A stretch of DNA of 64,000 nucleotides from Botryllus schlosseri (Eukaryota): positions 3,598,001 through 3,662,000 of the forward strand of contig CM119371.1 of the NCBI GenBank assembly GCA_051294905.1, given 5' to 3'. The notes beneath the pieces are model-generated. The model saw nothing but the letters and a program-made list of their open reading frames with translations, was not told where the DNA came from and did not search any database. Made by a program: the position numbers and the translations under genes. Below, piece by piece: positions 35,471 through 62,210 of the stretch (its first letter is position 1; each line of letters starts with the position of its first letter).

Positions 35471-35837
35471 ATCAGTTTTACTATAGTGTAGCAAGATAAA
35501 GTTTGGATTTATTTGACACCAACCCGTGAACTTGTCTGGTGTCATGGTGATTTTGCTACAGTCTAAGGACACTGCTGGGGTGCTATTTTCTGCATCACAG
35601 ACTTCGGACACTGCTATAGCGCAATCTGAAGGTAAACAAACATGCAAACATCATGAAATTGCAACATACATCTAAATCCAGTGAGTATAGTGACCTGGTC
35701 TGTGATTTAAGATAATTTCGAGCTAAAAAGGGGGCACTTCTTCGTTATTCTCCACACATCAGGAAGTGGTCTCCATGAAACCAATGCTTCCTATGAACAT
35801 GTGAGAATTTATAAACGTTAAAATAAATTGATTTTCG

Positions 35838-37315: not shown

Positions 37316-37444
37316 GCTGAGGCTAATTTAACCCTAATTTCACGATACCAAGACTACAAAATGCTCATGGGGAACATTGCTTCTTCATGTTCATGTGGTT
37401 GTGGACCCGGTGGAAATTCCGTATCATACGTAACGCTTACTTAC

Positions 37445-37725
37445 CGTTGGTTAGGTCGTAGACCCTTAGATAAGCTCTGAAATCTGCGGCCGCCGTGGAT
37501 GCAGTGAAAAGATATCTGGCCATACTTGAGCGCATCATTGAAATTTCGCCGAGTGGTTCGCTTTCTTACTGCATCGAGCGTACGTGAATTTCTCTTGTAG
37601 AGCTGGACGTAATTTTCTTTCTGGTATTTCTCCAAAGCACTTTTTAAGTCTTCATAAGAGGCGAACCTACTCTCGGAATCCATGCCGCAGTTACGGCCCA
37701 CAGTTCCGGAAATCCCGGCACCCAT
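37445..37725 (-). pseudogene. 5' exon of MULE-type transposase (ZSWIM3/FAR1-like N-terminal DNA-binding region)
   Basis: FASYEDLKSALEKYQKENYVQLYKRNSRTL...LKYGQISFHCIHGGR..GLRPNQ, ending at donor CG|GTAAGT just inside the TIR. Confidence 0.75.
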
Positions 37726-42027: not shown

Positions 42028-45018
42028 TAGGGATGGTGTGAACCTCTGAAAGGTTCAGGTTCGCGTGAACGTGAACCTTTTTGAAAGGTTCTGTGTGAAC
42101 GCGAACGTGAACCTCATGACGTCACGTGACGTCATATTGCTAATTCCGACCCTACATTTCAGTGAAGTGAGCCTATATTAATGTACATTGTACACTATAT
42201 ACCTATAGCGACGACTCGGGCCACATAATGCCACAATGCTAAAGTATATATTGACGTTTTAAACGTCACCGGTTTTATCAACTGGGGCAATCAATTGATA
42301 TAATCACCCCAGAAAGTCAATATCTTCCATCGCTTTGCCAACAATTTCGACAAGAACTTGCAAGGTAATAGATGCTTATATACGCCTTAACGGTCAAGGC
42401 CAGGCAGGAAAATGTATTCGTCGTCCGAGTATTGCTACGTTGATATTGAGCAGAGGTTAACAAGTTATACAGCAGTAGCCAACATCCCAATCGCACGGAT
42501 TTGGCTTTTATGATACAATAAGCATATGAAATTAAGATTGACCCCGTACGCCAGCTACATTTTTTACCTCAGACAACGACATCAATTTCGTTAATTGGTT
42601 GAATAAGCATCATTCGCTGACTATCTACATGTAGTGTAATTCGCTTTTGATATTGTGAGCAGGGCATGGTATGGTATGGAATGGAATGAGAATCTTCCAT
42701 ACTCCATACCCGCCCAATCGTTCCATACCATACTTGACAATTTTCCATACCATAGCAACATTCTTCCATACCATATTTGATACTTTTTCCATACTTTCGC
42801 AACTTGGCCAACCTCTCAAGGGATATTCTATTTTTGACGTGTGGAAATGTTCCAGTGTATTATATTCTAATTATTTTGGATGAGATTATCCATTTATACA
42901 GCCCCGATGCTCCAATGATATCCCCAGTTTCTTTATAGCATATGTCGACAACGCTGTAAAAATGTATATAGGCCTATACACACGGGATTATTTGGAAATC
43001 ACAACAGAGTCTCATGACATGTAAATCTAGTGTGGTAACGTGCTAGCAGTAACCTCATCTACAGAATTGCATAACACAAAGGTATTGTCAAATTATAAGA
43101 TAGGTTCCCAACCTTTATACACTTTAGAATTGAATTTATTTTGTAAAGACTTGCTATTGGCGAAAGTTCAGACCCCCAAAATGGAACAGCACGCAATGAA
43201 ATTAATGAGCAGTGAACTGGTAACCGTACACGCAATGTTGCGCCTCCGTAAAATGGATATGTGAGGTAAGCTGACAGAAAAATAGGAAGGGTTTGAATTT
43301 TTTTCAAATGTGCCAAGGTAGCATCACTTTACATATGTAAATGCCGAATATATTGCATGGGTCTGTTAACTTCTTGGTGTTGACGAACTTTTATGCGTAT
43401 GGTAGATATAAGCCACCATAACCTACACTGTCGCACGCTACTATTACTCGAGTAGTAAGAAATATGTCATTTCCTCAGTAACGAGTCCGGCTATGCTATC
43501 AATTAGCGATTCCACGATCTCCATACACGATCTCTACATATAAACTTTTATTTTAACGAATCAGGTGATTTCAATCACACCATTTCGTATACGAATGAAT
43601 AACAAACTATATGAGGGAGATCGCGTGCCGCTGTCCACTCGATTCTCGCTCATTGGAGGCAGTGATAATACGAATTGCTGAATTGCAAATGAGCGAAGAA
43701 TTATTATAGATATATACGATCGGCATTTCATACAAACGTTTAATAAACGAAGTTAATAATGTAAACTGTAAAGAATATGTTTTCCAAAGTGAGTCTTTTC
43801 CCAACCAGAGGGCCTTAAATTCCCCACAATTGGGGTATATTCTCCACCGGTTGGAGAATATTTCTTTAAATATAATTTTTCATCACTACAATCATTATGC
43901 GACAGCTAATTAAATGTATATTTTCTCCGCCAATCTGTGGGTCGATCACACTCGTTAGCTTTATTAGCCATATCAAGGTGTCCTCTGACCATTATATCAG
44001 AAATAACCAGATTTCATGAAGTTACAATGCGTGTTGTAGGCCGGCATATGGTAACGTCGCTCCAAGACGAGCTACATATTTTTGAATCACAATGATGGTT
44101 ATGTCAAATAGATATTGCGTGATGATCATCCGCGCCAAGCGCAGAAAATTATTTCCAAGTTCAACAAATTGATGAAAATATTCATGTAACTTCTACATTC
44201 TCAGAGTCTACGATTTTAAAACTATACATTGGTCATTTACGTAGTGGGAGTTACGATAAGTGAAATGCACTTGTAACGTGCTCGCCGTCGAATATCATTC
44301 ATTTTTATGATATTTAAATCGGAATAATTATCATTAATATTATTTTCATTCATATGTGCATCGCGAAACTTAGCTGTCTTCAAATAAATGTCGACCGGGA
44401 AGGGTGAGTCGTGAATCACAATTTGAGATATGAACAATGAACATAGACAATGAGCGATTTTCTGCGGTATGCAATCAATTTGACAAATCGAAAGTAGGAT
44501 TATTGTCATGGTACTGGCAAAAATGTAAAAGTATGGAAAAAGTATGGAAGTATGGAAAACACCTTCCATACCATACTTGAGAAATCTCCATACCATACCA
44601 TACTTGCACTCTTCCATATTCCATACCAAAATTTCGTTCCATTCCATACCCTACTTCCATACCATACCATACCATACCATGCCCTGATTGTGAGATTGCG
44701 GGTCAAGCTCACAGCAGAGAGTCACTAAATATTCACAAACGAAAAGCTGGATATTTCGAGCAAACGTTTGTAACAAACCAAGTAAAATTTTTGAGATGGT
44801 CAAGGTGCATGCCATTTTAGTGTTGATTTTTATGCTGCCAACGCCATGTATTGGATGGCCCGTAGTTGAAATACAATAAATTTCAACCAAAGATGATGTG
44901 ATATGAAAAAGGTTCACAGTGCAGAACCTACCGAGGTTCGTTTGTGAACGTGAACCTCTAAATATCAGAGGTTCACACACAGAACGCGAACGTGAACCTC
45001 ACGTTCACACCATCCCTA
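42028..45018. mobile_element. hAT-type element with GTGAAC repeats (element D)
   Basis: TIR TAGGGATGGTGTGAAC...GTTCACACCATCCCTA with perfect TSD ATAGTTAG. Confidence 0.88.
42660..44686. mobile_element. hAT-type element with (TATGG)n repeats, copy 2 (element E)
   Basis: TIR CAGGGCATGGTATGG...CCATACCATGCCCTG with perfect TSD ATTGTGAG. Opposite orientation to 13660-15460. Confidence 0.88.
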
Positions 45019-45648
45019 ATAGTTAGGCTCACTTGTACGAACTACCCATTTATTTAGTTGATAGTCAACTAACTAATAGTTTTTTTAGTAGTTTTAGTTC
45101 TAGTTGACGATTTTAAAAGTTGAGTAGTTTTAGTTCTCGTTGTAGCTGCGGATTGTAAAAACTGACTAGTTGCAGTTCTAGTTGTTTTGGTAAATCTAGT
45201 TATTTTCACATCGTTGCGAGTTTTAAAAAATGAGTAGTTCTATTTCTAGTTGGGCTTTTTTACAACCCAAGAGTTCGTGCAAGTTTGGTTTCTGGTTGCA
45301 TTTTCAAGTACCAGTACCAATAGACGAAATTACAATGGAATGTCGGTCTTGGTCGTCTGAGTCTCGACTCATATGACTTGGTTCTAGTCATGCGCAATAA
45401 CTCGAGTCCAAGTCGACTCAGTACACAGATTGACTCGAGTGTAGTCGAGTCATTTCCATATTTTAGGAAAATGAATCGGGTCAGGTCTAGTCATCAGAAA
45501 TTCGTGACTCGAGTCATTATAACATTGCCCCACATATACACGACCTATGTCAACGATGTGGTGCAGCTGCATCATGGGACATTTGGCGACAATGACCATT
45601 GATTTTATGAAACAGGATGTACTACATAGTACCGGATAAAACACTTAC

Positions 45649-45798
45649 GTTGGTCTTGTGGAATAGCGTCAATTCCTGAATTTATAATGTAGTTGATGGT
45701 GGTCTTGTTTCCGTGAATTTGATCTCCTGCCACAACGTTGACCGAGCTGTTTATGATCCGTTGATTGATGTTTTCGCCTTCTGCCAAACTTGCAGATC
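45649..45798 (-). CDS. Putative NLR exon 2 encoding a RHIM/amyloid-like motif
   Basis: Acceptor gtgtctcag|, donor C|GTAAGT, 150 nt, phase 1-1, compatible with both exon 1 and the NACHT exon. Translation SASLAEGENINQRIINSSVNVVAGDQIHGNKTTINYIINSGIDAIPQDQ. Confidence 0.65.
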
Positions 45799-47053
45799 CT
45801 GAGACACGCGAGAATATTACGTCTGATATTCCGGTTCATATACTCATTTGAAAGCATTTTTAAATCAAGTATCGATCATGGAAACTTCCCATAATTTCTC
45901 CTTAATATTAGGTTATGCAGCGCTCGAATATTAATATTATATTTCAATAATTTAATTATATGCTTTGTGGTACGGAAATTGAATATAGCTTTCAATGTAT
46001 TCATAGTAGTAGAATATTTATTGAACTTGAAGAATTCTAGGGTGCCTCTTTTCGAGAGTTAACGGCACACCAAAAAGATTTTAACAGATTCAAAAGTAAA
46101 CCAAAAAGGCTAAGTATGACAGACCATGAGATTCGCATTGTAACTATGATAACTATATTAAACTTCGAAGTGCAGTAAGGTATGGTTGCTAAAAAATTCG
46201 ACCCTGGGGAATTTTGTATTAAAATGTGTAACCAACCATTAATATGAGATAATTACATAATTATACTACTATGAAGTGATTCGCAGTTCAGGGTATGCGT
46301 AGCTCGCGAGAAATACCGCGGATATTTACGAGGCCGAATTAACATGGTAAATTCGGCCCTCGGAGAATTTTATATTAAATGTATTCCCAACTATTAACAT
46401 GAATTACACAATTATCTTATTACCAAGTGATTTGGAGGTCGCGGTATGCGTAGATCACGCAGTCACGGGCGATAACGCGAATATTTACGGGCCCGAATAC
46501 ATTTTAATAGAAAATTCATTTTTATGCAAAATTCACCGAGGGCCAAATTTACCGAGGGCCGAATTTCCGAGGGCCACTAGTAACCCACGCCCCGAGGTCA
46601 TATAGCTACAGCATAATTTATAAATATACAGTTGCAAACACGAAACAAAATAAACTAAGGAGAATTTAGTGAGTTGTAGACAGAATATTTTTGTCAGCAT
46701 AAATAGGTTTGTCAATTGAATAAGGGTATAGTTCAACACTGTGAATGAAACAAAGATCTGCCTAGCGTAATGACAGTGAATACATTGTCATCAATTATAG
46801 TGTTGTGTGCAGGCTAGATTTTCACTTGAATGTTTAGCAATCGACGAAGCATATGCTTGGAATAATCCTCATAAGAATATGTTTGGGCAGCTAATTTGCA
46901 TTGGCGTGCGAGCTCTACGTGGTCTATTTGCGAATGTTTTATAGCGAATCGATTCTGGATTATGCTGCTTTATACGCTCGAACAATCCGTGCTAACTTTA
47001 ATATGATTTCATAGGATATAGATATGAACTCAAATATTGTAGCAATTACTTAC

Positions 47054-47126
47054 TGCTTCCTTCAGGTAATAATGGTGGAGTCACATCATCGACACCAGAA
47101 ATTCGCTCTTCTCCCCCTTCCGCCAT
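47054..47126 (-). CDS. Putative NLR first coding exon
   Basis: Kozak-like ATC ATG G, then MAEGGEERISGVDDVTPPLLPEGS and donor A|GTAAGT (phase 1). Lies directly downstream of a motif-rich promoter. Confidence 0.6.
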
Positions 47127-47226
47127 GATCACGATCACGTAATGATAAATAAATGCTATAACACACAATACTAAGAATGCAAAGACAGGGAATATCAGTA
47201 GTGAGGGTATCTGGGATATAGACCCG

Positions 47227-47431
47227 CCAATCCCAGAAGGCCACGTCTCCTTAATTGCCACGCCTACATTGCCACATCATGCGCCCACTGCCGCACCTAT
47301 AGCACACCCATTGCCACATCATCAGCATCCATTGCCACATAGCCCGCCAATCAGAGAACGCCACGTCATCCTAATTGCCACGCCTATATGACGCCCATTG
47401 TCACGCCTACAGGATACCCATTGCCACGTCA
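47227..47431 (-). promoter_or_regulatory. ER-stress-type promoter: two ERSE motifs and two UPRE/XBP1 sites
   Basis: CCAAT-cccagaagg-CCACG (47227-47245) and CCAAT-cagagaacg-CCACG (47347-47365), both with N9 spacing. CCACGTCA (reverse complement TGACGTGG) at 47361-47368 and 47424-47431. Further GCCAC repeats lie between them. Confidence 0.7.
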
Positions 47432-48316
47432 CCTGCCACTGCCACATCGTGTGTATTTATGAGCAAATTTCATTGTTTTGTGAATTTCAATACCGGTTTT
47501 CCATGTATATTTAACAATATGTATTGAATAACTTGAAATGTATCATCACTAATTAATTAATATAAAATGTGATTTTAAGCGCTGCGACTTGAAAATATTA
47601 ATATAATAACTTACTTTTTTGGATATAAATAACATTCAGATTACACATAAATTTCGAAAGCTATGATGTTAATAGAATACTATATTTGCCAGATATTCAA
47701 AGATAACACTCATCAACGTTGAACTAGGCGTGGGGTTCTATGATGATGTATTAAAATTCTACACATCATCACTAATTAATTAATTCATATAAAATGCGAT
47801 TTTGAGCGCAGACAGATCGTGGTTTCGATTGCCGAGGTCTCCGCATTTCATGACCTAATATGAACGCACACTACAACTGAATTCATTCCAATACCTGCAA
47901 ATTTACTTTGCATGTCGAGTATAAGGATAATTTAATCAGCGCTAAAACGCCAACGGACTAGCCGTAGGCGCACAATTCTCGGCGTTACAATTAAACAAAC
48001 TTTTCGCGGCAGGTACGCGATTCCTAATGGTTTCTACAGTTTCCACATTTCACGACTTATTTTCTTTGGACGCATACAAGCGATTCCCAAGGCCGGGGCT
48101 ATGGAAACAAATCAAGCATGAGTACGTAAATCTTGAGCCACTCTGAAGCAAGGGCCACTCTAGCCGGGAAATTAGAGTCGCTGCTTCGCATCATTTTTAC
48201 AGGCAGTCTCAGACACTTTGCTGCATCTGAGCTTCATACTAATACATGCATCATTTTTGCATGACGAGAATACGGTCAATAAACGCCGGAGGCGAGTCAT
48301 TTAAACCTTGTTGCTA

Positions 48317-48394
48317 GATACTACCGCTTTCGGCTACAACAAAGTTGACCTGCAACAAAAAATAGAAGCCCTAATGATCATGCAGAGGAAAGTT
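48317..48394. pseudogene. Rearranged Bcl-2-family gene fragment
   Basis: GATACTACCGCTTTCGGCTACAACAAAGTT resembles exon 2 in forward orientation. It abuts CCTGCAACAAAAAATAGAAGCCCTAATGATCATGCAGAGGAAAGTT, which resembles the reverse complement of the intron 3' end. Confidence 0.7.
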
Positions 48395-51240
48395 CAATTA
48401 TACATCGAATTATTTGAATAGACTATCTACATTGTGTAGGTATGAAGTGAAATAGAACGGAGTTTACGCAAAAGTTGCTATTGATCATAGACCAAGCTTG
48501 CTTTCAGAGCTGGAAACTAAATGCATATGAAAATTTAGCTAGGTTTTCCCCACACGCATCAAATGGAGGCCTACTCAAGTGTTTATGAGGTGGCGGATAG
48601 TTCGGAGGTTGTTGGCATGGAAGGACGTCACATAGAATTGTGGAGTTTTCTGTAAACTATAATCCAGTGATCTATTTTCAATCTCTATATTTTTCATTAA
48701 TCTAAACTAAGTACTGTTAGTAGGCAAACCCTAAGAAAGTATCCTCTGATAAAAGCAGGAGTAATTTGTTATCCGTGAAATAAATAGATGGTGCGCAATA
48801 TGAGCGGTGCTGCGATGACTGACAAATACTTTGAATTAATGTATAGAAGTAGCGATTTCGAACTACGTAAAAAGTTAGTCCAGCTCACGCATTTTCCATT
48901 TTGAATTTATGTTCTCAAGTAGGTTTTTGTCTACACGCACCAACAACTCAAGTATTTATGACACAGGAATGATTCATTAAGTATAGCGCAAGCAGGCCAA
49001 ACCTATATTTGAGTGCTCCAAAATGTACAAGTACTTCGCTATGTACTCCCTCCACGTAAAAAGTGACAGATTTAGGGAAAAGTTGCTATAGAACTGCGTT
49101 AGTTTTAAAGTTGTTCCATCATGCAATGTGTGATGAAATTTGGTATGCTGCATAATCACAATGCCCTGGAGCTCATTTAGATACGTTTTTTAATGTAGTT
49201 ACACATTCTAGTTGTTTTGATGTAAGGAAAAAATCATTCGATAACTCGATAGTTAACACGCGTTGATGTAACTTTCCTCATTTGTATGCATAGCATACGC
49301 GAAATTATTATTATGTCATGAATAAGTAGTTTACAAATTCATACGATTTTTCTTGTTGCGCTCCGGGATAAAATGTAATTTTTCGCTCTTTTTTATTTTT
49401 TCAATAAAATTAGTATTCATTTTACAAAAAACGCCGTGTAAAGATAAAGTACTTGTACATTTCGTAGTGCTCAAGTATAAGTTTTCAAACCATTACCTTG
49501 ACAAAATTTTCAGAATAGCAACTTTTGCGTAAAGTCTGTCTTGCATTTAGTTGCCGGCTCTGAAAGCAAGCAAAGTTTGTGGTATTTGCGCAACATCGAA
49601 ATTTGTACACTTCACGCGGGGCCTACGATACTTACGGCCTAATATGGCACATTACACTTGCTGGATATAAGAGGCCGACACTCCCAACCAGACATCACGA
49701 CTGACTCAATGATTGCTTACGATCTCACTTCTCGATACCAGACGCCTCGCCATACAAGTCTAATAAAGTATTATAACAGACAAAATTAGTTCTTTCAGAT
49801 GAAACAACCCAATTAAGAGCCAAGTGACAGCGTCGCAATGTATTTAATCACCAACACACAAGAAGACAATGTAACGAGAATCCCCAACTTGGGCATGTAA
49901 AAGTATTTTACAGTATGGTAAAACGAATTCAAGCACGGGAAAATGAAATTCATTCATTTGGAACTACTCTGAAACACACACGTGGAGCTTGGCCATAGAA
50001 GTTCTGCAAGTGAAATGAATTACTGCAGTAAGCAAACTACGTCTTGCTCAACTGCCGCTTTTTTTAGAGTCCTTCACAGCATCTTTTCTCATATAAACGG
50101 ACAACCGGTTTCAGAGTATACCCGCGTCGATCGCATCGCATCTATATCAACGGTTAACCACATGAAATAACAATATGCTCTTGTATATCGAAATATACAT
50201 GTTTTATAGAATATATTAGATCCAATACCTATACTAAAGCCGCAAAACGCATTGGAGCATAAATGGATAATGCACGCAGATCGAATTACACCGAGATTTC
50301 CCGAATAAAAGTAGCCTAGAAACATAACTACTTACTAAAAAATCGTTGCGTAGAAGTGGGGTTAGTCTACGAACATAACCACTTACTTACTTTGAAATCT
50401 CAACGTGTACTTGTATTCGTACTTTACCTTTACACGGCGTTTTTGTATAATGGATACTAATTTTATTAAAAATAAACAAAAAGCGCGAAAAATTACATTT
50501 TATCCTGGAACGCAGCATGAAAAAATCGTATAAATTTTGTAAAGTAGATAGAAGACTACACTATTCCGATGCACTAAAGACTCTTACACTCTGGATTTTG
50601 TTCGGAATTTACGCAAAACCGCTGTTGCTCTGCGATAATTTTGATCACTATGTTTTGATAATGACTTGCTTCCGAGAAAGAAATAACATTCATTAAACGT
50701 TAGATGATACTTTTCCTTGATATTCTATCATGTATATTTATGACTAATGCGACATCACTATGTGTACGACAGGTCTGATTTGAACACACTAATTTTGCGT
50801 ATCACACCACAAACTGCGCAAGCCTTCAAAGTTGATAAGTAAACAAGTATTTGCACTCCATCAGAATACTAAAGTAGCTTTTCGCGTATATGTACCTAAT
50901 ACTAAAGTGTTTATGATTTCAGATTGCTTCAACTTCATGACATTTTCTGTAAACAGAAATATAGACCTAGAATACTAACTTTTATTCGTAAATAGATACT
51001 TCTACCTTAATTTAATGGATTTATCTGAGATCATTGATTTACTTAATCCCTCCAAAATGTGCATTATACAAGTACGTCACCATCGAAACCCTCTGGCTAT
51101 AACTATCTGGCAGTATAATTGCAGCAAAAACTCGAGTACTAATTTTAAAGTAACTTAGGTAACTAAATACTCGGGTACTAATTTTAAAGTAACTTAGGTA
51201 TCTAAATGAGCTCTGAGTCGCTGTTATCTCGCATCTGACC

Positions 51241-51297
51241 ATGGAGTTAACACCGGTATTACCTTCGCTCACTGATGAAAAAGATGAAAGTTGTTAA
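51241..51297 (+). pseudogene. Truncated 5' fragment of a Bcl-2-family paralog (mirror copy at 57110-57166, minus)
   Basis: MELTPVLPSLTDEKDE then stop, versus MELSRVSAPSITEEKDE of the intact gene. The upstream AGCTCTGA(G/C)TCGCT is also shared. Confidence 0.7.
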
Positions 51298-51867
51298 AGA
51301 AAGCAGATTAGTATGAAAACTCGTTAAATAGAAGTAAAAGTAGCCTAGAAACATAACTACTTACTGAAAAATCGTTACGTAGAAATGGGGTTAGTCTACG
51401 AACATAACCACTTACTTACTTTGAAATCTCAACTTGTACTTGTAGTCGTACTTTACCTTTACACGACGTTTTTGTATAATGGATACTAATTTTATTAAAA
51501 ATAAACAAAAAGCGCGAGAAATTACATTTTATCCCGGAACGCATCAAGAAAAATCATATAAATTTTGTAAAGTAGATAGAAAACTACACTATTCCGATGC
51601 CCGGAAGACTCTTACACTCTGGATTTTGTGCAGTATATACTAATTTTACATTGCGGAGTATTCCATTAACGTTAATCCAGTGATCCTCCATCTATTTTCA
51701 ATCACGATCCTCTTATTTGTCTAGGCTTCGAACCCCACATCCAGTACGTTTTCTGGGGATTAATATTTTCAGAGTCAAGTATAGCGTATCGAGACTTCAT
51801 GAAACTTACTTGGAAATAGTTACTTCTACCCTAATTTAAAAGGTTTCTCAGATATCGTTACAATGGA

Positions 51868-51950
51868 AATGGGTTGAGCGAGCGGTTAAGGCGTTGGACT
51901 TAAGTTTCAATGAACAGGTGTTCACGTGGGTTCGAACCCAACACCCAGTA
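51868..51950 (+). tRNA. tRNA-Leu(TAA)-like, probably degenerate or a pseudogene
   Basis: 83 nt. GAGCGGTTAAGGCG-TTGGA-CT-TAA-GT-TTCAA, paired variable arm, GGTTCGAACCC B-box. Single mismatches in the acceptor and T stems. Confidence 0.75.
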
Positions 51951-52401
51951 CGTTTTAAGGGGATTAATACTTTTAGATTCAAATATAGCGTATCGAGTAC
52001 TTTTTCTCAACTGTAATAACAACTTTTAGACTCCGGATTTTGTGTAGTATATACTAATTTACAATACCGCATTTGTAATTCGTGCAAGTACAGGAATATC
52101 ATAGTTCTTGTAACAAAGTTGTCTGCGCACAATATATGTTAATCATAAGTCCTACACATTCATGATTTCGTCCTAGTTTGAGTTTTAGAAAATATTATAC
52201 CGACATCGCGACATCTTTCAAAAACAAAACCATGATCAATGCTTGAGAGATCATTTTTGCTATTTATCATTGACATAAGTCATTCTGGAGTGCGAAAACG
52301 CATTGTACGATATAGATGAAACTTGAGCAAATCCAAGGATCCTCATTTTCAAAGTAGCTTAGATCTCGAAATAAGCTCTGACTCGCTATTCTCCTCAAAC
52401 C

Positions 52402-53186
52402 ATGGAATTATCACGAGTATCAGCACCTTCGATCACTGAAGAGAAGGATGAAATTATATCCGAAGCATATTCCTTGACCAGGAATTTTATCATGTACGAA
52501 CTCGATGGCTCATGCGTTAAGGTAAATACGAAAGCAGAGAGAACCTTACGTCGAGTTGGGTATGAAATGTTCGAGCGACATCGAACAGTCCTGAACGCAG
52601 TCTCCAAACGTCTCCGCTATAGTGATGTTGAAGTCAATGAAAAATATAAAGAATATTTACCCGATGAGCGAATGTTCCTGATGATAGCTGAGGAAATTTT
52701 CAAAGATACCAAAGAAAATTGGGGGAGGATTGTCTCCATTTTTGTGCTCGGTAGCATTCTTGCTCGCAAGAACGAGAATGAACATCACGGGGAGCATATA
52801 GAAGCTATCATACAGACAGTTGGGAATTACATTGCTAGCAAAAGACGAAAGTGGATAGTGCGAAATGGAGGATGGGTGGGTGATTTACATGCCTTGCTTA
52901 GGATTTACAAATTATCTTTAGCATGAGATATATAGTGTATCTGCTCTCCAGAGCCCATATCACCTCTCGATGATGAAATTCAGCTTTAGCTTCTAATTCG
53001 GTTCCCAATTTATATTCTACGACACGATAACTTTCCTCCGTATGATCATTAAGGCTTCTATTTTTATTGCAGGACGGCTTTGTAGAATTCTTTGATAATA
53101 CCGCTTTCGACTACAATAAAGTTTGGAAGGGACTCGTGTTTGTCGGAATCGGACTGACATCTATTGCAATAACATTATCAAGATAA
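52402..53186 (+). CDS. Bcl-2-family protein (multi-BH, C-terminal TM anchor), 195 aa; exons 52402-52875 and 53073-53186
   Basis: BH3-like LRRVGYEM, BH1 EEIFKDTKENWGRIVSIFVLG, and BH2 WIVRNGGW|DGFVEFF split by a GT-AG intron at the family's typical position. Tail VWKGLVFVGIGLTSIAITLSR*. Confidence 0.92.
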
Positions 53187-55220
53187 TGGATGTTCGCATG
53201 CTTTATCTCATGTAATATTTTACCAATATAATTCTCCATCGTTTAATCGTGGTAGTTTTTCTGTAGGATGTATACAGTTTTTCTGAGAATACTCGAAACA
53301 TTTGCCCCATAAGAAAACCTTCTTTATACTTTTAATTTTTCAAATTTCTACAGCTACGTAAGGGAATTGTTAGGGTTACCCAGAATACGCTGCAGGTCAA
53401 ATTTGATTCGAATACGAGCAGTATTGTGACAGAGATTTGCGATAATGTAAAATAACCTACCTTATACGACATCAAATTTCGTCTTCTCTCCAAGTGGAAA
53501 TATCATGTTCAATAATATTGTTTATACCGAACAAATATAAAATTGCCTATGCTGTTGCTTTGCAAGAATACTTCGCTCAGTAACCAATTTCTGGTGGATT
53601 CCAAATCGATATAGATAGAAATACGGCATACTTTACGCTCCAATTCGCTTCCCACACATTCCATATAATTACTAACAGAACAGTACCAGCCTTGAAATTT
53701 TGCGTAGTACTAGATGGCATGTATACAATTTCATGACATCCGACAGTACGACGGAGACTATCAAAATATCGGAAGGAGCTAGAGTACTAACGTTTTACTT
53801 ACTCGAAAATGACTACTTCTACCTTATTTTAAAGGATTCTTCGCTCGGAGCGAAATTTTATGTGGTTTTGGATACTATCCAAGATGTAGGCTCACTTTGA
53901 TGGGTACTTCGTAAAACTCAAATATTGCGCAGTGAGAGTTCTCAAATTCTCGAAGTATTTTTGTTATTTTTATTGCGAAAAGTCATTCTGCAGCGCGAAA
54001 ATGCGTCGTAGGATATAGATGACACTAGCACCACTCATCAAGACCACTGAAAACAGTACATTTCAACATTTAGTAGCAGTAAATTACTAGTAAAGTAAAA
54101 GAAGGTATGATTTCTGAGTGAGTTAAAAAGTATGATGGGTATTCGTTGCGTTGTATAAGCATAAAAACATTCCCGCGCGCTCGTAAACCTAACACTTCCT
54201 ACCCTACCACCTACTACTAAGACGCGCGCGCGGGAATGTTTTTTATGCTTATACAACGCAACGAATACCCATCATACTTTTTAACTCACTCAGAAATCAT
54301 ACCTTCTTTTACTTTACTAGTAATTTACTGCTACTAAATGTTGAAATGTACTGTTTTCAGTGGTCTTGATGAGTGGTGCTAGTGTCATCTATATCCTACG
54401 ACGCATTTTCGCGCTGCAGAATGACTTTTCGCAATAAAAATAACAAAAATACTTCGAGAATTTGAGAACTCTCACTGCGCAATATTTGAGTTTTACGAAG
54501 TACCCATCAAAGTGAGCCTACATCTTGGATAGTATCCAAAACCACATAAAATTTCGCTCCGAGCGAAGAATCCTTTAAAATAAGGTAGAAGTAGTCATTT
54601 TCGAGTAAGTAAAACGTTAGTACTCTAGCTCCTTCCGATATTTTGATAGTCTCCGTCGTACTGTCGGATGTCATGAAATTGTATACATGCCATCTAGTAC
54701 TACGCAAAATTTCAAGGCTGGTACTGTTCTGTTAGTAATTATATGGAATGTGTGGGAAGCGAATTGGAGCGTAAAGTATGCCGTATTTCTATCTATATCG
54801 ATTTGGAATCCACCAGAAATTGGTTACTGAGCGAAGTATTCTTGCAAAGCAACAGCATAGGCAATTTTATATTTGTTCGGTATAAACAATATTATTGAAC
54901 ATGATATTTCCACTTGGAGAGAAGACGAAATTTGATGTCGTATAAGGTAGGTTATTTTACATTATCGCAAATCTCTGTCACAATACTGCTCGTATTCGAA
55001 TCAAATTTGACCTGCAGCGTATTCTGGGTAACCCTAACAATTCCCTTACGTAGCTGTAGAAATTTGAAAAATTAAAAGTATAAAGAAGGTTTTCTTATGG
55101 GGCAAATGTTTCGAGTATTCTCAGAAAAACTGTATACATCCTACAGAAAAACTACCACGATTAAACGATGGAGAATTATATTGGTAAAATATTACATGAG
55201 ATAAAGCATGCGAACATCCA

Positions 55221-56005
55221 TTATCTTGATAATGTTATTGCAATAGATGTCAGTCCGATTCCGACAAACACGAGTCCCTTCCAAACTTTATTGTAGTCGA
55301 AAGCGGTATTATCAAAGAATTCTACAAAGCCGTCCTGCAATAAAAATAGAAGCCTTAATGATCATACGGAGGAAAGTTATCGTGTCGTAGAATATAAATT
55401 GGGAACCGAATTAGAAGCTAAAGCTGAATTTCATCATCGAGAGGTGATATGGGCTCTGGAGAGCAGATACACTATATATCTCATGCTAAAGATAATTTGT
55501 AAATCCTAAGCAAGGCATGTAAATCACCCACCCATCCTCCATTTCGCACTATCCACTTTCGTCTTTTGCTAGCAATGTAATTCCCAACTGTCTGTATGAT
55601 AGCTTCTATATGCTCCCCGTGATGTTCATTCTCGTTCTTGCGAGCAAGAATGCTACCGAGCACAAAAATGGAGACAATCCTCCCCCAATTTTCTTTGGTA
55701 TCTTTGAAAATTTCCTCAGCTATCATCAGGAACATTCGCTCATCGGGTAAATATTCTTTATATTTTTCATTGACTTCAACATCACTATAGCGGAGACGTT
55801 TGGAGACTGCGTTCAGGACTGTTCGATGTCGCTCGAACATTTCATACCCAACTCGACGTAAGGTTCTCTCTGCTTTCGTATTTACCTTAACGCATGAGCC
55901 ATCGAGTTCGTACATGATAAAATTCCTGGTCAAGGAATATGCTTCGGATATAATTTCATCCTTCTCTTCAGTGATCGAAGGTGCTGATACTCGTGATAAT
56001 TCCAT
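55221..56005 (-). CDS. Bcl-2-family protein, mirror copy; exons 55532-56005 and 55221-55334
   Basis: Reverse complement of 52402-53186 with an identical exon-1 ORF translation. Confidence 0.85.
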
Positions 56006-56456
56006 GGTTTGAGGAGAATAGCGAGTCAGAGCTTATTTCGAGATCTAAGCTACTTTGAAAATGAGGATCCTTGGATTTGCTCAAGTTTCATCTATATCGT
56101 ACAATGCGTTTTCGCACTCCAGAATGACTTATGTCAATGATAAATAGCAAAAATGATCTCTCAAGCATTGATCATGGTTTTGTTTTTGAAAGATGTCGCG
56201 ATGTCGGTATAATATTTTCTAAAACTCAAACTAGGACGAAATCATGAATGTGTAGGACTTATGATTAACATATATTGTGCGCAGACAACTTTGTTACAAG
56301 AACTATGATATTCCTGTACTTGCACGAATTACAAATGCGGTATTGTAAATTAGTATATACTACACAAAATCCGGAGTCTAAAAGTTGTTATTACAGTTGA
56401 GAAAAAGTACTCGATACGCTATATTTGAATCTAAAAGTATTAATCCCCTTAAAACG

Positions 56457-56539
56457 TACTGGGTGTTGGGTTCGAACCCACGTGAACACCTGTTCATTGA
56501 AACTTAAGTCCAACGCCTTAACCGCTCGCTCAACCCATT
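56457..56539 (-). tRNA. tRNA-Leu(TAA)-like, mirror copy
   Basis: Reverse complement of 51868-51950. Confidence 0.7.
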
Positions 56540-57219
56540 TCCATTGTAACGATATCTGAGAAACCTTTTAAATTAGGGTAGAAGTAACTATTTCCAAGTA
56601 AGTTTCATGAAGTCTCGATACGCTATACTTGACTCTGAAAATATTAATCCCCAGAAAACGTACTGGATGTGGGGTTCGAAGCCTAGACAAATAAGAGGAT
56701 CGTGATTGAAAATAGATGGAGGATCACTGGATTAACGTTAATGGAATACTCCGCAATGTAAAATTAGTATATACTGCACAAAATCCAGAGTGTAAGAGTC
56801 TTCCGGGCATCGGAATAGTGTAGTTTTCTATCTACTTTACAAAATTTATATGATTTTTCTTGATGCGTTCCGGGATAAAATGTAATTTCTCGCGCTTTTT
56901 GTTTATTTTTAATAAAATTAGTATCCATTATACAAAAACGTCGTGTAAAGGTAAAGTACGACTACAAGTACAAGTTGAGATTTCAAAGTAAGTAAGTGGT
57001 TATGTTCGTAGACTAACCCCATTTCTACGTAACGATTTTTCAGTAAGTAGTTATGTTTCTAGGCTACTTTTACTTCTATTTAACGAGTTTTCATACTAAT
57101 CTGCTTTCTTTAACAACTTTCATCTTTTTCATCAGTGAGCGAAGGTAATACCGGTGTTAACTCCATGGTCAGATGCGAGATAACAGCGACTCAGAGCTCA
57201 TTTAGATACCTAAGTTACT

Positions 57220-58477
57220 TTAAAATTAGTACCCGAGTATTTAGTTACCTAAGTTACTTTAAAATTAGTACTCGAGTTTTTGCTGCAATTATACTGCCAG
57301 ATAGTTATAGCCAGAGGGTTTCGATGGTGACGTACTTGTATAATGCACATTTTGGAGGGATTAAGTAAATCAATGATCTCAGATAAATCCATTAAATTAA
57401 GGTAGACGTATCTATTTACGAATAAAAGTTAGTATTCTAGGTCTATATTTCTGTTAATACTGAAAATGTCATGAAGTTGAAGCAATCTGAAATCATAAAC
57501 ACTTTAGTATTAGGTACATATACGCGAAAAGCTACTTTAGTATTCTGATGGAGTGCAAATACTTGTTTACTTATCAACTTTGAAGGCTTGCGCAGTTTGT
57601 GGTGTGATACGCAAAATTAGTGTGTTCAAATCAGACCTGTCGTACACATAGTGATGTCGCATTAGTCATAAATATACATGATAGAATATCAAGGAAAAGT
57701 ATCATCTAACGTTTAATGAATGTTATTTCTTTCTCGGAAGCAAGTCATTATCAAAACATAATGATCAAAATTATCGCAGAGCAATAGCGGTTTTGCGTGA
57801 ATTCCGAACAAAATCCAGAGTGTAAGAGTCTTTAGTGCATCGGAATAGTGTACTCTTCTATCTACTTTACAAAATTTATACGATTTTTCTTGCTGCGTTC
57901 CAGGATAAAATGTAATTTTTCGCGCTTTTTGTTTATTTTTAATAAAATTAGTATCCATTATACAAAAACGCCGTGTAAAGGTAAAGTACGAATACAAGTA
58001 CAAGTTGAGATTTCCTAAGTTACTCTAAAATTAGTACCCGAGTATTTAGATACCTAAGTTACTTTAAAATTAGTACTCGAGTATTTGCTGCAATTATACT
58101 GCCAGATAGTTATAGCCAGAGGGTTTCGATGGTGACGTACTTGTATAATGCACATTTTGGAGGGATTAAGTAAAGCAATGATCTCAGATAAATCCATTAA
58201 ATTAAGGTAGAAGTAGTTATTTACGAATAAAAGTTAGTATTCTAGGTCTATATTTCTGTTAATACTGAAAATGTCATGAAGTTGAAGCAATCTGAAATCA
58301 TAAACACTTTAGTATTAGGTACATATACGCGAAAATCTACTTTAGTATTCTGATGGAGTGCAAATACTTGTTTACTTATCAACTTTGAAGGCTTGCGCAG
58401 TTTGTGGTGTGATACGCAAAATTAGTGTGTTCAAATCAGACCTGTCGTACACATAGTGATGTCGCATTAGTCCTAAA
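57220..58477. repeat. ~0.8-kb-period direct tandem duplication at the right palindrome edge
   Basis: AAAATTAGTACCCGAGTATTTAG...GATGTCGCATTAGTC occurs at about 57222-57668 and again at about 58027-58472. Confidence 0.85.
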
Positions 58478-59992
58478 TACCCAGCAAACACAAAACCGTA
58501 AAAGGATCATCCGGGATCATCTCGATTAGGTTCTGATTTTCTAAGTGTCGAGGGAATGTCTAAAATACGTAGTAGGATGGTCTTGTGGTTATATTCAATC
58601 ACAATAAATTCATACTCGGTGTTGTTCCATCTCATGCATTGGGCTTCGTTATATCTGGTAGTTAACCTAATAATGCAAATTTTCTATCTCTCGCTGGTAT
58701 GACTAAAATACGTAGAAAGGATGACTTTGTCGGTACATTCAATCAGGATGAATTCCCATCCGGTTTTGTTCGATCTCATGCAGTAGCTTCGTTCTATCCA
58801 TTAGAAAACAATGTTCTCCCTTCCTTTTATTGCGTGAGGATGTCGCCGATGTTGTATATTCGTGTTGTTGCTCTAAGGTCGAACAGTTTTTTTTTTCTGA
58901 TATATATGATCTTCATTATGTATATATTCGCTCTTTCGGTAATCTCGCATGTTCAACGAGTATGGCTAATAGTTTTATTCAGAGAATAACTAAATAAGTG
59001 AGATGTTGTACGTTTAGGAATATGATTATCGATGCGTGACTTCTAGAATATTTCGGCGATTCAAATTTTACGTCATCGCGCGGGACAAAGATTTGACGCG
59101 CAAAAGGTCGCAGCCAGGCATAGTTCGCTCTTTCTGTATGGTAAATGCCGTAAATATATAGGAATTGTGACTGACTGAGGTAGCGGGTTAAAGGTATATA
59201 CGTAATAGCATATAGCTTATGGGGTATTTCGAATTGCCTGTAGTATATGACGCCTTGAGCTGTTTGACGTTCTGCAAAACAGGTGTAGACAACTATAGAA
59301 AAATTTCAGCTTTTCCAGGCTAGAATTAGAGCTAAACCGTTTTTTCCGAATTAGATTACAATTATATTACTGGCATTTCGCTCTAATTTAGTGAAATTAG
59401 ACCACTATAATTATCTAGTTGTCCAAGTCGCTTCAAACATCTGAATTACCGGTACCTATACCTACGGTACGTCATAATATTTATGCTTGAATTTTCTAGG
59501 TATATAAGTCATATAGATACATACCTGTAGAACACTTATTCGTGATTTTATAAAAGTTGGTGCAAGAATGGACATTTTCAACTTGATGTTGATTAATGGA
59601 GCAAAATTTGATATTTGAGTGCAATTATACCTCGAATCCAGTGACAAGATTATTAATCGTTGAAACCAAACGCAGCTTCTTTATGTTGGCCCAGAGAATT
59701 TAGCTAGCCAGACCATATTGATAGAATATGGTCACAGTAAGATAATATTTTGGGCTAATTTACATGAACTTTCCAACATTTGATTTGATATGTCCGCTAA
59801 AACAGTTGTTATTCTGCTTTCGAATAAGACCTAAATTGCTGATTTCTATGGTAACTGTTTGTCAAAGGTTGTAAAGGTAATTTCTTTTCCATGTTAGATG
59901 TTTGTTTGTTTGTGGTGTTCATGGTGGTGGTTCGACTACACTGGTCATTTTACACCAGGCCGGTTCTTATTATTATCATTCCGTATCTGCCC

Positions 59993-60852
59993 GATTACCA
60001 GTGAACTCGGCACTTAGTGAATTCGGCTGCACAAACTTGGCACTTGGTGAATTCGGCCGTGGTAGATCTGGTAGCGGTACTGGTCGCCATGATTGGTTAC
60101 TGGAATGTTTGCCGGTGAACTTGGCACTTTGAGTGGTTGTCAATGTCGTACGGGGGTCAGGGCATGCGTAGATCACACAGTCACGGCATGATTAGATCAC
60201 AGATTGCGTAATCGCGGGAAATAACGCGACGCTCTTCACTTGGTGAACTCGGCCCTTGGAGGAATTGGCACTAGAACACCTTCGCATTAGAAATGCATTT
60301 AATATGAATGAACAGTATCAAAAAGGAAATTTAAACGTGTCGTGACTCGCGGTAGATCTCGTAATCTTGGGATCCTTCAACCCTGTTATCGAGACACCCT
60401 AACCCGAGAGTGGAATCGTCTCTCCAAAGGCAAAAAATAATTTATTTTGATGTGATCATGCGAAACATTTGTTGATGAGGAACACTGGCTTGTCGTGATC
60501 GATAAACGAAGAAGCGCCGCTTGATCTTCCACATTTTCGATCTCACATACAACGCCAAGATCCATCTTCTCAAAACTTACACGACACAGGCCCGTCACTC
60601 ACGCCATCGATTCCAAGCAGACCGCGCGTGGTCGGTATATGAGCGCTTCGTTATTTCCCGCGGCTACGCAATCCGTGATCTAATCACGCCGTCACTGCGT
60701 GATCTACGGATGCCCTGACCTCCTTACAAGATTGACGAATCACTTGATAATACTATTATTAGTTTAATAATTCATATTAATAGCTGTTAATACTCTTCAT
60801 TACAAAATTTCCCGAGGGCCGAATTCACCAAGTGCCGAGTTCATCGGCAACC
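59993..60852. mobile_element. Non-autonomous TIR element with 8-bp TSD (Merlin- or MULE-like termini)
   Basis: GATTACCAGTGAACTCGGCACTT... / ...AAGTGCCGAGTTCATCGGCAACC with perfect TSD ATCTGCCC. A related decayed copy lies near 46180-46585. Confidence 0.75.
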
Positions 60853-61139
60853 ATCTGCCCACTTATAGCACGGCCCACTCCTAGGCTTTTTAAGACATGG
60901 CTATGCGGATCAGATGGCGAGGAGGAGCCTAGATAAACGGCCAACACTTCGGTAGGAATTATGGAGGCGACGTGTCAGGCTCGAACCCGCAATTCATTGG
61001 TGTTTAGCTATAATGGACCGTAAAATGGCACCGTAGCATTTGAAATTTCGTGTGGCAATTGACTTTTGTGTGGAAAATTGTGTTCGTTTCAGAACTTATC
61101 CGAAACTTTTATTCCGTCATAGATTGTATATGATAAAAC

Positions 61140-61640
61140 GATATCGTAATTGATCCTAGAAGAATTCCGAAGCCACTCACCACAAAGGAGGATTTAAAGA
61201 AGTTTGATGACATATTGAATGAAAGCAAAAGCCTTTGCAAGAGATGTGGTATGTTGAATCTGTTTTGTTATTTTCAAATGCTTGCCAATAGCAGACGGTA
61301 TATATAAACGTAAGATGTGGAAGCTATCAAGGTGTTATGTTTATTATTTTTAGAAATTCAGTCAGTCAAAGTGGACGATCGTATTGCTTGGATTATATTT
61401 AGGCTTATTTTAGCATCTTTGAGATGCAACTCTGAACGTGGACGGTCATGAACAGTCAACTAATTCTGTTCCTATATTGACATATCAGACATTTGCACTC
61501 GTACCGTTGGCGGCGACAATATTGGTCAGTCAGCAAAAAGCATCATGAAGAAGGTTGCCAGTCTGGTGAAATTATAGCAGAGTCGGAAAGAATGGGAAAT
61601 ACGCTTTCATCAACCTCCATTTGAACAAGATCACATATAG
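61140..61640 (+). pseudogene. DUF4806-like transposon accessory gene remnant
   Basis: Spliced-looking fragments PKPLTTKEDLKKFDDIL, TVGGDNIGQSAKSIMKKVA and GKNGKYAFINLHLNKI. A possible parent terminus TA-CCCAGCAAACAC lies at 58480. Family recognised by eye only. Confidence 0.45.
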
Positions 61641-61723
61641 TAAGAGACATTCATGATATGCTGCAAATGTCACTGTGTTCTTTGTCTAGTCACCCCACTC
61701 ATGTAACTATTGAGGCCTCATGC

Positions 61724-62210
61724 CAGGGTTGTAACCAAGTCACAAGGCTCCGAGTCGCAAGTCAATCTCACTTTTATAGTTTTGACTCGAGTCATTTTCA
61801 ATTCACCACCGAGTCAAGTCCGACTCCAAGTCAGCGAGCAGAGGGCCGAGTCCGAGTTATGGTATTATGACTCGAGCCAGAGTCATTGTGTTAGCTGCTC
61901 AGTTTCCAATTTAAATCTTGTTAAACCAACTTTTTATATATTTTTTGTGATATCGAGTGGGTCGCATTTATAATATACGAATTTTCCTTACTTTTAGCAG
62001 TTTCTGGCCGCATTTTCAAATACCAGTATCAATAGACGAAATCCCAATAGCGATTTGCTGTACTATTCTTTGAAATAACAATAAAATGTCGGTCTTGGCC
62101 GTCTGAGTCTCAAGTCATGCGCAATGAGACGAGTCATTTCAGTACTTTGAGAAGATGACCTGAGTCAAGTCGAGTCAACAGAAAAACCTGACTCGAGTCT
62201 TACAACCCTG
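61724..62210. mobile_element. hAT MITE (GAGTC repeats), intact copy of element A
   Basis: TIR CAGGGTTGTAA...TTACAACCCTG with TSD CCTCATGC/CTTCATGC. Confidence 0.85.

Follow-up and report, generated by a model that had tools for sequence, protein, structure and literature searches.

Geometry of the palindrome

The question raised by this locus is what kind of event placed a 7.6-kb palindrome, with a Bcl-2 family gene in each arm, into the 64,000-nucleotide stretch of the Botryllus schlosseri genome analysed here (the window). We consider it probable that the palindrome represents the central mirrored part of one integrated, truncated copy of a multi-copy element, ~14 kb in its complete form, namely a fully palindromic, non-autonomous Polinton derivative; this copy would later have decayed and been homogenised.

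Self-BLAST of the window gave a single inverted match of this kind (50394-58014; 99.3% identity over 7625 columns, loop included). In the arm-versus-arm alignment the mirrored part of the left arm (50394-54180, 3787 bp, forward strand) is followed by a 45-bp loop (54181-54225), flanked by GC-rich arm ends, and by the right arm (54226-58014, 3789 bp, reverse strand). The existence of the palindrome, proposed in the first-pass annotation, is thus borne out. So is the description of the inner arms as identical save for one homopolymer indel near the centre: no difference was found in the 3161 bp of 51001-54161, and an A-run indel at 54162/54244 is the sole arm difference inward of 51000. The other differences (11 aligned columns, representing 8 events) all lie within 50405-51000, that is, in a diverged outer zone of 607 bp (50394-51000), where scattered differences, the first near 51000/57407, and a variant at 50948-50951 had been correctly noted. 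Four of these events look derived in the left arm, two in the right arm, and two could not be oriented. Contigs mapped to the outer zone have loose ends at 50625 and 50950 and an insertion at 50951 (among the best 24 of 1014 loose ends).

Positions 50394 and 58014 had been taken as the limits of the duplicated unit, yet an extra copy of arm sequence starts at 58015 and high-copy sequence runs to the left at least as far as 48401. Hence the flanks, previously regarded as unique, are not so, since the right one begins with this arm copy (58015-58479) and high-copy DNA lies to the left of 50394.

Bcl-2 gene and tRNA-like gene

The two copies of an Mcl-1-like Bcl-2 gene converge on the loop. The left copy (52402-53186, forward strand) is predicted to be spliced from exon 1 (52402-52875) and exon 2 (53073-53186) across a GT-AG intron (52876-53072), yielding a product of 195 aa; according to the ORF and arm comparison, the mirror copy (55221-56005, reverse strand) is identical to it. 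The presence of a Bcl-2 gene in each arm had been recognised before (PF00452, E = 1.5e-21 in Pfam), although the 174-aa ORF misses the second exon. The 195-aa product carries the BH1 motif NWGR, the BH2 motif GGW and a C-terminal hydrophobic tail, features which, together with the fold, it shares with Mcl-1, A1/Bfl-1 and Bcl2L10/Nrz. Its predicted structure (pLDDT 82) resembles 6fbx in fold (TM 0.73), and the best PDB sequence matches are Mcl-1 and Bcl2L10 (E = 1e-10). The domain, the modelled fold, both motifs and the C-terminal anchor are all in line with a pro-survival, Mcl-1-like protein.

The product shares 48-50% identity with Styela clava bcl-2-like protein 2 (XP_039252627), and exon 2 is 55% identical to the S. 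clava C-terminus (E = 2e-12). The intron at GGW and the tail match this protein as well, whereas ~45 N-terminal residues are missing from the window Bcl-2, which moreover sits on a long branch. In the tree it forms a clade with P0001 and P0152 (100/99), with a stem of 0.81, nested among Styela-like proteins (97/93). Judged by these sequence comparisons, the window Bcl-2 is of ascidian ancestry and represents a long branch inside the ascidian clade. Residue 54 is Tyr in this copy and Asp in P0001, P0152 and the Styela protein. The Bcl2 of a lancelet adintovirus (A0A5H3CWZ2) gave an E-value of 0.24 and 13% identity only. The beginning of exon 1, together with the module upstream of it, survives as a remnant at 51241-51289 (forward strand; mirror 57119-57166), where 51165-51289 matches 52329-52453 at 74% and 11 of 17 residues are identical in tblastn. 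In a word-index homologue search with exon 1, none of the 31 candidates passed, whereas relatives were recovered with full HMMER; six pattern matches to Bcl-2 in viral contigs were all left unconfirmed.

In the single RNA run that was compared with the locus, 175 reads were mapped, 173 of them fitting only in part, and none of the 12 reads at 52561 carries the letter of this copy. RNA depth is below 1x per orientation from the Bcl-2 stop region to the loop, and the Bcl-2 splice joint does not appear among the RNA joints listed. No canonical poly(A) hexamer was seen between the Bcl-2 stop and the loop (2.1 expected), the first AATAAA being at 54433; variant hexamers do occur there. Read-through of the convergent copies into long hairpin dsRNA, as suggested in the first-pass annotation, is a lead at most.

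The tRNA-like gene reported in each arm was also found by ARAGORN, which calls tRNA-Leu(TAA) at 51868-51951 (forward strand, followed by TTTT) and at 56456-56539 (reverse strand). It is, however, degenerate: its score of 23.2 bits against RF00005 is below the Rfam gathering score of 29, with mispairs in the acceptor, D and T stems (z -0.28), and it does not qualify as an intact cloverleaf. A partial 3' duplicate lies at 51724-51797. Rfam matches to SNORD93 and AaHKsRNA41 were rejected as being far below gathering.

Copy number and the centre of the repeat family

Three public DNA-type runs from two samples (X1, X2 and X4) were also compared with the locus. The span compared with DNA contigs was 6 kb, from 48401 through the first 175 bp of the right arm; 34,811 contigs of X1 and 3,305 of X2 map to it, covering 30 of 30 bins in both, with 178 and 180 variable places, respectively. 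Single X2 contigs reach a word depth of 4005, 2994 and 1030, against 58-91 for others. The variant evidence from contigs comprises 40 of the 230 variants, 15 of the 64 joints and 24 of the 1014 loose ends, and includes no separate entry for the left-arm/loop junction. The contig counts, variable places and spread of depth reveal many diverged copies in genomic DNA, the left arm, the Bcl-2 gene and the loop all being high-copy at the level of the family rather than of this particular insertion. Summed contig depth does not equal copy number; assuming that the lowest-depth contigs are single-copy, the repeat family is estimated at tens of copies or more.

The junction of the loop with the right arm was found in all three DNA-type runs. 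A 2-bp length variant at 54223 occurs in 14 X1 contigs (depth 5228 of 13892), 4 X2 contigs (9983 of 15010) and 1 X4 contig. On its loop/right-arm side, the hairpin centre is hence common to other family copies, and the 45-bp loop between GC-rich arm ends is a feature of the family; the contigs show this for the centre of the palindrome. The loop contains ACTACT. That this motif is a Maverick terminus, cut here by integrase, was considered and rejected, given how widespread the junction is among family members and that the loop of one X2/X1 contig is a variant devoid of the motif. The loop pattern had no match in metagenome contigs.

Putative left end and flanks of the element

A putative left terminus (47197-47460, forward strand) consists of an AGTAGT end motif followed by a tract of 53% GC with short GCCAC/TGCCA sub-repeats. 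GCCAC occurs 10 times and TGCCA 8 times in its 264 bp, i.e. 38 and 30 per kb as compared to 1.4 and 1.6 per kb window-wide. Lying 7006 bp from the palindrome centre (54203), the motif and sub-repeats would fit the 5'-(AGT)2 end of Mavericks; the AGTAGT hexamer alone is common (31 on the forward strand of the window) and a matching right end is absent from the window, where neither the terminus (25-mer, up to 5 mismatches) nor an end-plus-target string was found. A candidate 6-bp target site, AATATC (47191-47196), likewise has no partner in the window. The left-end pattern had no match in viral contigs, and its lone match in a metagenome contig (L001) was dismissed: it is a 22-mer shared by chance with an unrelated ORF, beyond which the sequences are not similar.

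Between the putative terminus and the palindrome, the outer left arm (47461-50393) has no mirror copy in the window. It is a mosaic of rearranged element modules, high-copy from 48401 on, with self-matches to 53029-53123, 51650-51723, 53786-53838 and 50412-50546 and inverted scraps of Bcl-2 exon 2 at 48317-48394. On the other side, the extra arm copy (58015-58479, 465 bp, reverse strand) corresponds to 50735-51198, is 98% identical to either arm and is joined to the right arm at 58014/58015 via 1-bp microhomology. Unrelated repeat-rich DNA (58480-64000) takes the place of the outer right arm, without any collinear match to 44000-50400, and ~3.5 kb of the right arm is absent, as is its terminus, which would be expected near 61210. 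This DNA begins after TA with a CCCAGC-type motif, which may be a transposon end; no partner end was seen in the window. A host exon with a start codon (47054-47126, reverse strand) is found 71 bp away from the putative left terminus; it is in frame with an exon at 45649-45798. A NACHT ORF is present at 22206-23708 (Pfam).

Among 50 frames from 47000-54200 and 58015-64000, neither an ORF nor a Pfam match at cut-off was detected for PolB, integrase, capsid, ATPase or protease, Bcl-2 being the only match, and the element does not qualify as an autonomous Polinton/Maverick. Four weak Pfam matches in these frames were all below cut-off.

Probable arm-to-arm homogenisation

At the rate of the outer zone, 42 events would be expected in the inner 3161 bp, where none is observed (P = 4.5e-7 for uniform placement, with a boundary picked after viewing the data). 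All 17 in-arm sites checked carry the same letter in both arms and, among the variants listed, 12 of them differ from at least 96% of the depth in both X1 and X2; two of these 12 mirrored rare letters fall in the diverged outer zone. The homogenised inner zone (51001-54161) combines identical arms with family-rare letters in both. At five sites the extra copy 58015-58479 retains the letter of the family or paralogue while both arms share another. The gradient of differences, together with the mirroring of family-rare letters, suggests that one arm was copied onto the other after insertion. Homogenisation, as put forward in the first-pass annotation, is the best reading of the gradient (0 versus 8 events), albeit short of proof. 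The mirrored rare letters could come from a minor subfamily, and the extra copy may stem from another family member.

Alternative explanations

It is very unlikely that the palindrome is an artefact of long-read sequencing (a fold-back or a missed adapter) in which two haplotypes, or two copies of the repeat, were joined at the loop. Such an artefact would account for the inner identity, which is the expectation for one folded molecule, and for an outer divergence of 1.3-1.8% with structural differences, which could be allelic; in addition, no mapped record spans the whole stretch. The junction, however, is present in 19 contigs of the three runs at high depth and with a natural length variant, and the two flanks show no collinear match to each other. 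Even less credit is due to the idea that single-copy Bcl-2 and tRNA genes of the host were duplicated in place by fold-back, an event which the annotation had regarded as possibly recent. The gene is intact, intron-bearing and of apparent ascidian ancestry, and fold-back priming would use just such a short loop enclosed by a GC-rich inverted repeat; nevertheless, a local duplication is left unsupported, and largely refuted, because the arm, gene and loop belong to a high-copy family whose junction is widespread in other DNA, also in that of a second sample. The window Bcl-2 also branches far from the Styela-like proteins.

Two further explanations retain the multi-copy element. According to one, which we regard as unlikely, it is a cut-and-paste element of the Foldback/Mutator type with giant inverted repeats, whose end lies elsewhere than at 47197. 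The window contains neither a Polinton gene nor a right end or target duplication, and duplicated modules form a mosaic in the arm. The capture of intron-bearing host genes is typical of Pack-MULE-like elements. Full-length capture is described as rare (PMC6431247). Against this explanation, an (AGT)2 motif and a GC-rich sub-repeat tract occur at the expected half-length. The other, somewhat less improbable though still not favoured, concerns only the gradient: either the copy came from a rare subfamily with identical arms and its outer zone diverged by rearrangement or by exchange with other copies, or consensus building merged the inner arms. The right-arm letters at 50624 and 50948-50951 do exist elsewhere in the family, the outer zone adjoins a rearranged junction and contains two mirrored rare letters, and hairpins, at least those of simple satellites, are described as disturbing long-read sequencing (10.64898/2026.07.13.738322). 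Yet derived outer-zone changes are found in both arms (4 left, 2 right), as independent decay predicts, and the extra copy has the rare letter at 51049 but lacks five changes common to both arms.

Proposed origin and history

Under the Polinton reading, the ancestor was most likely a Polinton/Maverick that underwent snap-back during protein-primed synthesis from one end. With the strand folded back at the GC-rich inverted repeat around the 45-nt loop and serving as its own template, the resulting element would have had the same end on both sides and lacked genes for replication; it was presumably moved by the polymerase and integrase of a helper. Its one intact cargo gene, the intron-bearing Mcl-1-like Bcl-2, may have been acquired at the DNA level from the gene of an ascidian host and was probably retained for protecting the cell in which the element replicates. 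After insertion, the right arm would have acquired the short extra copy and been shortened by 3.5 kb on its outer side, terminus included, and both arms would have gathered mutations (~1.3% between arms). A later template switch or conversion outward from the loop could then have copied ~3.2 kb of one arm over the other, wiping out inner differences and placing private letters of the donor arm in both gene copies, among them a non-synonymous one in Bcl-2 codon 54.

A bolder version, possible but rather doubtful, would make the family a helper-dependent hairpin satellite of Polintons, in which all viral genes were replaced by a captured, intron-bearing pro-survival gene, present twice and evolving fast in viral style, with apoptosis resisted by the cells that carry or replicate the element. 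Its arms would be kept identical by loop-primed template switching that continues after integration and can fix a mutation in both copies simultaneously.

Comparison with known systems

Mavericks are described as carrying a 5'-(AGT)2 end motif and, when intact, intronless ORFs (PMC8097293), and adintoviruses as carrying Bcl2 homologues (PMC8502044). The element resembles these groups, as far as the two accounts describe them, in its candidate (AGT)2 end, its size range and, for adintoviruses, the Bcl2-type accessory gene. It differs in the absence of polymerase, integrase, capsid, ATPase and protease genes, and in its layout: where those groups have a gene block between short terminal repeats, the element consists of a single inverted repeat with a loop of 45 bp. 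Its Bcl-2 has an intron and groups with ascidian cellular proteins, and the right end and target duplication are absent from the window.

In snap-back defective viral genomes and in palindromic or hairpin derivatives of protein-primed linear yeast plasmids, an end is copied back, resulting in two identical ends, a hairpin strand and helper dependence. The same traits, and a comparable replication route, are presumed here; in contrast to those systems, the element is integrated and multi-copy in an animal genome and bears a captured host gene. A literature search returned no paper on the palindromic yeast-plasmid derivatives. Foldback (FB)/Mutator-like elements and Pack-MULEs are alike in their very long inverted repeats with internal modules and capture of intron-bearing host DNA, whereas the window element has a whole intact gene, a near-zero spacer and a candidate end motif pointing to Mavericks. 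No comparable Bcl-2-bearing palindromic element was found in literature searched by title and abstract opening, a coverage outside which most subscription journals fall.

Arm-to-arm gene conversion is described for sex-chromosome palindromes of more than 10 kb (PMC3723533, 10.1101/800185), and template-switch correction for yeast inverted repeats with arms of tens of bases (PMC8604942). In both, as described there, copying replaces one arm with the sequence of the other, whereby a new mutation can reach both copies; the present case differs in its 3.8-kb arm, 45-bp loop, mobile element and a single centre-anchored tract of ~3.2 kb.

If the Polinton reading is true, a virus-like transposon lineage shrank to a self-complementary satellite whose sole cargo, a host anti-apoptotic gene, was amplified many-fold, and this would be one way in which a death regulator is taken up as genomic DNA and disseminated. 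In its palindromic form the element would preserve, like a fossil, the Polinton mode of replication, a step which to our knowledge has never been directly observed. Caution is due when Bcl-2 genes are counted, or palindromes interpreted, in ascidian assemblies, as both may reflect mobile-element cargo and not host duplications or artefacts. Since the family supplies an outgroup at every site, many insertions could be used to date mirrored mutations and to map conversion tracts. The damaged copy is in this respect a natural experiment on palindrome upkeep, to which it contributes 8 differences in its outer 607 bp against none in the next 3161 bp, and family-rare letters in both arms.

Structure of the palindrome

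Self-BLAST of the window returned a single long inverted match at 50394-58014, and alignment of the arms against each other placed them at 50394-54180 and 54226-58014, with a loop of 45 bp in between. The outer 607 bp (50394-51000 in the left arm) contain every arm substitution, with 11 differing columns that we grouped into 8 events. Inward of these, the arms match throughout over 3161 bp (51001-54161), and one A-run indel adjoins the loop. This inner zone shows 0 events, against 42 expected if they were as frequent there as in the outer zone; under uniform placement the probability that all 8 events fall outside it is P = 4.5e-7, for a boundary picked after the data had been seen. The first-pass annotation was accurate in its description of the palindrome, of the differences confined to its outer part and of the indel by the loop. 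The repeat unit does not end at the coordinates given there: 58014/58015 is a 1-bp microhomology junction leading into a further copy of arm sequence 50735-51198, which occupies 58015-58479 with 98% identity and is followed by unrelated DNA. The right arm is broken.

Copy number and the shared hairpin centre

Four public sequencing runs were compared with the stretch 48401-54400, which runs through the left arm and the loop and 175 bp into the right arm. Runs X1 and X2 come from one sample and are guessed to be DNA, X4 bears another label and is of a kind not on record, while X23 is raw RNA. The family is present in high copy number, with 34,811 matching contigs in X1 and 3,305 in X2 (both cover 30/30 bins, and X4 covers 29), and the Bcl-2 exons are covered as deeply as the remainder of the stretch. 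Among the eight X2 contigs listed, word depths range from 58, 87 and 91 up to 1030, 2994 and 4005; provided that the lowest-depth contigs are single-copy, this would correspond to tens of copies or more, summed depth not being equal to copy number.

A 2-bp length variant at 54223, the junction of the loop and the right arm, is carried by 14 X1 contigs (depth 5228/13892), 4 X2 contigs (depth 9983/15010) and 1 X4 contig. This makes the hairpin centre a feature of the family, seen in contigs that leave the mirrored arm length of other copies unread. Hence, both the fold-back or missed-adapter assembly artefact and the one-off duplication of a host gene, each proposed from the sequence alone, fall. 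The original observation is confirmed, and its interpretation is partly supported. Among the rows displayed (40/230 variants, 12/28 indels, 15/64 joints and 24/1014 loose ends), the junction of the left arm and the loop has no row of its own. No record of the four runs spans the whole stretch or was shown to derive from the window insertion. Internally rearranged family copies also exist, as seen from a contig joint of 54177 to 49078, where a variant loop is joined to 49078.

Ends and classification of the element

The region 48317-50393 is regarded as part of the element because scrambled arm modules, including inverted scraps of Bcl-2 exon 2, lie there. Further to the left, at 47197, an AGTAGT precedes a 264-bp tract (53% GC) that contains 10 GCCAC and 8 TGCCA motifs, a rate about 20 times that of the window; the hexamer itself occurs 31 times on the + strand of the window. 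These sub-repeats may resemble host-factor sites in adenovirus termini. The distance from the 47197 motif to the palindrome centre is 7006 bp, implying a 14-kb element. No matching right end was found in the window, and about 3.5 kb of the right arm together with its end, expected near 61210, is either missing or displaced beyond 64000.

According to PMC8097293, (AGT)2 is the commonest end of vertebrate Mavericks, with target duplications of 6 bp. The candidate left end would fit Polintons/Mavericks. Their core genes are absent from the element, no protein family besides Bcl-2 having reached its cut-off in 50 frames. A link to Polintons is considered likely. The element is nevertheless not classed as a Polinton member, because the core genes are absent and the end evidence consists of the candidate left motif; it works like a non-autonomous derivative. 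The window copy is best read as a truncated palindromic element that carries Bcl-2 and probably derives from Polintons. The class of cargo is not new, since Bcl2 homologues occur in adintoviruses, as stated in PMC8502044. A palindromic, gene-stripped carrier was not found in print in a search of titles and abstract starts, with subscription journals mostly outside its range.

The start codon of an exon at 47054-47126, which splices in frame to an exon at 45649-45798 of an NLR-like gene, has the putative left end 71 bp upstream of it, and the insertion may affect that gene. At least four arm modules (50985-51015, 51810-51840, 53802-53832 and 48835-48865) share a motif around TACTTCTA, possibly an element promoter. 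In addition, a 12-mer at 63463-63474, beside CG-rich letters, equals the reverse strand of loop positions 54207-54218 (2 matches in the window versus 0.09 expected).

The Bcl-2 gene and the tRNA

Each arm carries an intact copy of the Bcl-2 gene (exons 52402-52875 and 53073-53186 in the left arm, mirror copy 55221-56005), the two being identical. The 174-aa ORF consists of exon 1 and read-through into the intron, whereas the predicted splice, from a GT donor that follows codon 158 (GGW) to the AG at 53072, gives a 195-aa product. The closest named relative of this product is bcl-2-like protein 2 of Styela clava (50%), to the C-terminus of which exon 2 shows 55% identity. The Pfam Bcl-2 domain (E 1.5e-21), best PDB sequence matches to Mcl-1 and Bcl2L10, and an exon 1 structure model (pLDDT 82) with a TM of about 0.73 to pro-survival structures together identify it as an Mcl-1-like protein. 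From these affinities, the source animal would probably be a stolidobranch ascidian.

In a tree of 34 proteins, comprising the exon 1 product and 33 homologue hits, most of them unnamed, the window protein forms a clade with P0001 (96%) and P0152 (81%), with support of 100/99 and a stem 0.81 long. This clade is nested among Styela-like proteins whose tips measure 0.11-0.42; two of the homologues, P0001 and P0004, are fragments. At 52421, in exon 1, the family commonly has an in-frame 3-bp deletion (11205/28861 in X2, also in X4 and two RNA reads). This deletion agrees with P0001 and is the sole coding-sequence indel among the 12 displayed of 28. Meanwhile, the tRNA-like gene noted in the first-pass annotation, predicted as tRNA-Leu(TAA), is degenerate: it scores 23.2 bits against an Rfam gathering score of 29 and has mispairs in three stems.

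Expression

The family seems to be weakly transcribed: about 6% of run X23 yielded 175 placed reads, 173 of which fit only in part, and the greatest depth, 4.4 and 5.3 in the two orientations, falls in 52401-52600. At 52561, all 12 of 12 reads (10 starts) have the family's common letter and 0 that of the window copy; the animal from which the RNA came may be without the window insertion. No spliced joint was found among the X23 joints displayed. From the Bcl-2 stop (53187 onward) up to the loop there is no AATAAA/ATTAAA (2.1 expected, not significant). As the first such hexamer comes 208 bp inside the opposite arm, at 54433, the predicted 3' UTR could fold on itself.

Probable homogenisation of the arms

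Seventeen of the 24 displayed in-arm variant rows were checked, most of them picked because the other letter was frequent, and all 17 sites have the same letter in both arms. At 12 of the 17, the window letter is rare in the family, with 96% or more of the depth in X1 and likewise in X2 showing a different one; 10 of these mirrored rare letters sit in the inner zone and two in the outer one. The rare letter at codon 14 is synonymous, while that at codon 54 is non-synonymous: the window copy has Tyr there, and P0001, P0152 and the Styela protein have Asp. Four of the outer-zone events look derived in the left arm, two in the right and two are unorientable, as expected if the arms decayed independently. 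At five positions where the two arms agree on a different letter, the extra copy (58015-58479) has that of the family (50741 and 51037) or that of the internal paralogue (50996, 51129 and 51162); at 51049 it shares the rare letter with the arms. We regard this as new evidence for arm-to-arm copying in place in the window copy. Instead of copying after insertion, a rare subfamily with a later outer-zone exchange, or arms merged in consensus building, might be invoked, which we consider rather improbable.

Under copying in place, the simplest order would start with insertion, followed by an asymmetric rearrangement and by decay, before about 3.2 kb of one arm was copied onto the other. Such copying would run from the loop outward, by template switching or conversion, and earlier rounds may explain why two mirrored rare letters lie in the outer zone. 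A study on gene conversion reportedly provides a precedent for the conversion route between arms. A template-switch mechanism of this sort is described, for short arms, in PMC8604942.

The element itself may have originated by snap-back of protein-primed synthesis at a GC-rich stem and may have been spread by the polymerase and integrase of a helper Polinton. Because the Bcl-2 intron is kept, the host gene would have been captured as DNA; it may have been retained as anti-apoptotic cargo, with the arms homogenised after insertion. That the Bcl-2 is a viral-style gene under selection, borne by a hairpin satellite with arms that are corrected even after integration, is a tentative and somewhat doubtful reading.

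Other features of the window

The window also harbours a NACHT-domain ORF at 22206-23708 (PF05729, E 4e-14), and PHD-finger and ZSWIM3_N frames at 34899-37725 around a GC-rich tandem array (35862-37313), which we take to be probably a decayed DNA transposon. A 2.1-kb direct repeat (2790-4918 and 24420-26480) has 85% identity, and the window further contains an 81-bp palindrome at 40166-40246 and, at 60034-60841 and 46194-46565, one family of decayed MITE-like inverted repeats.
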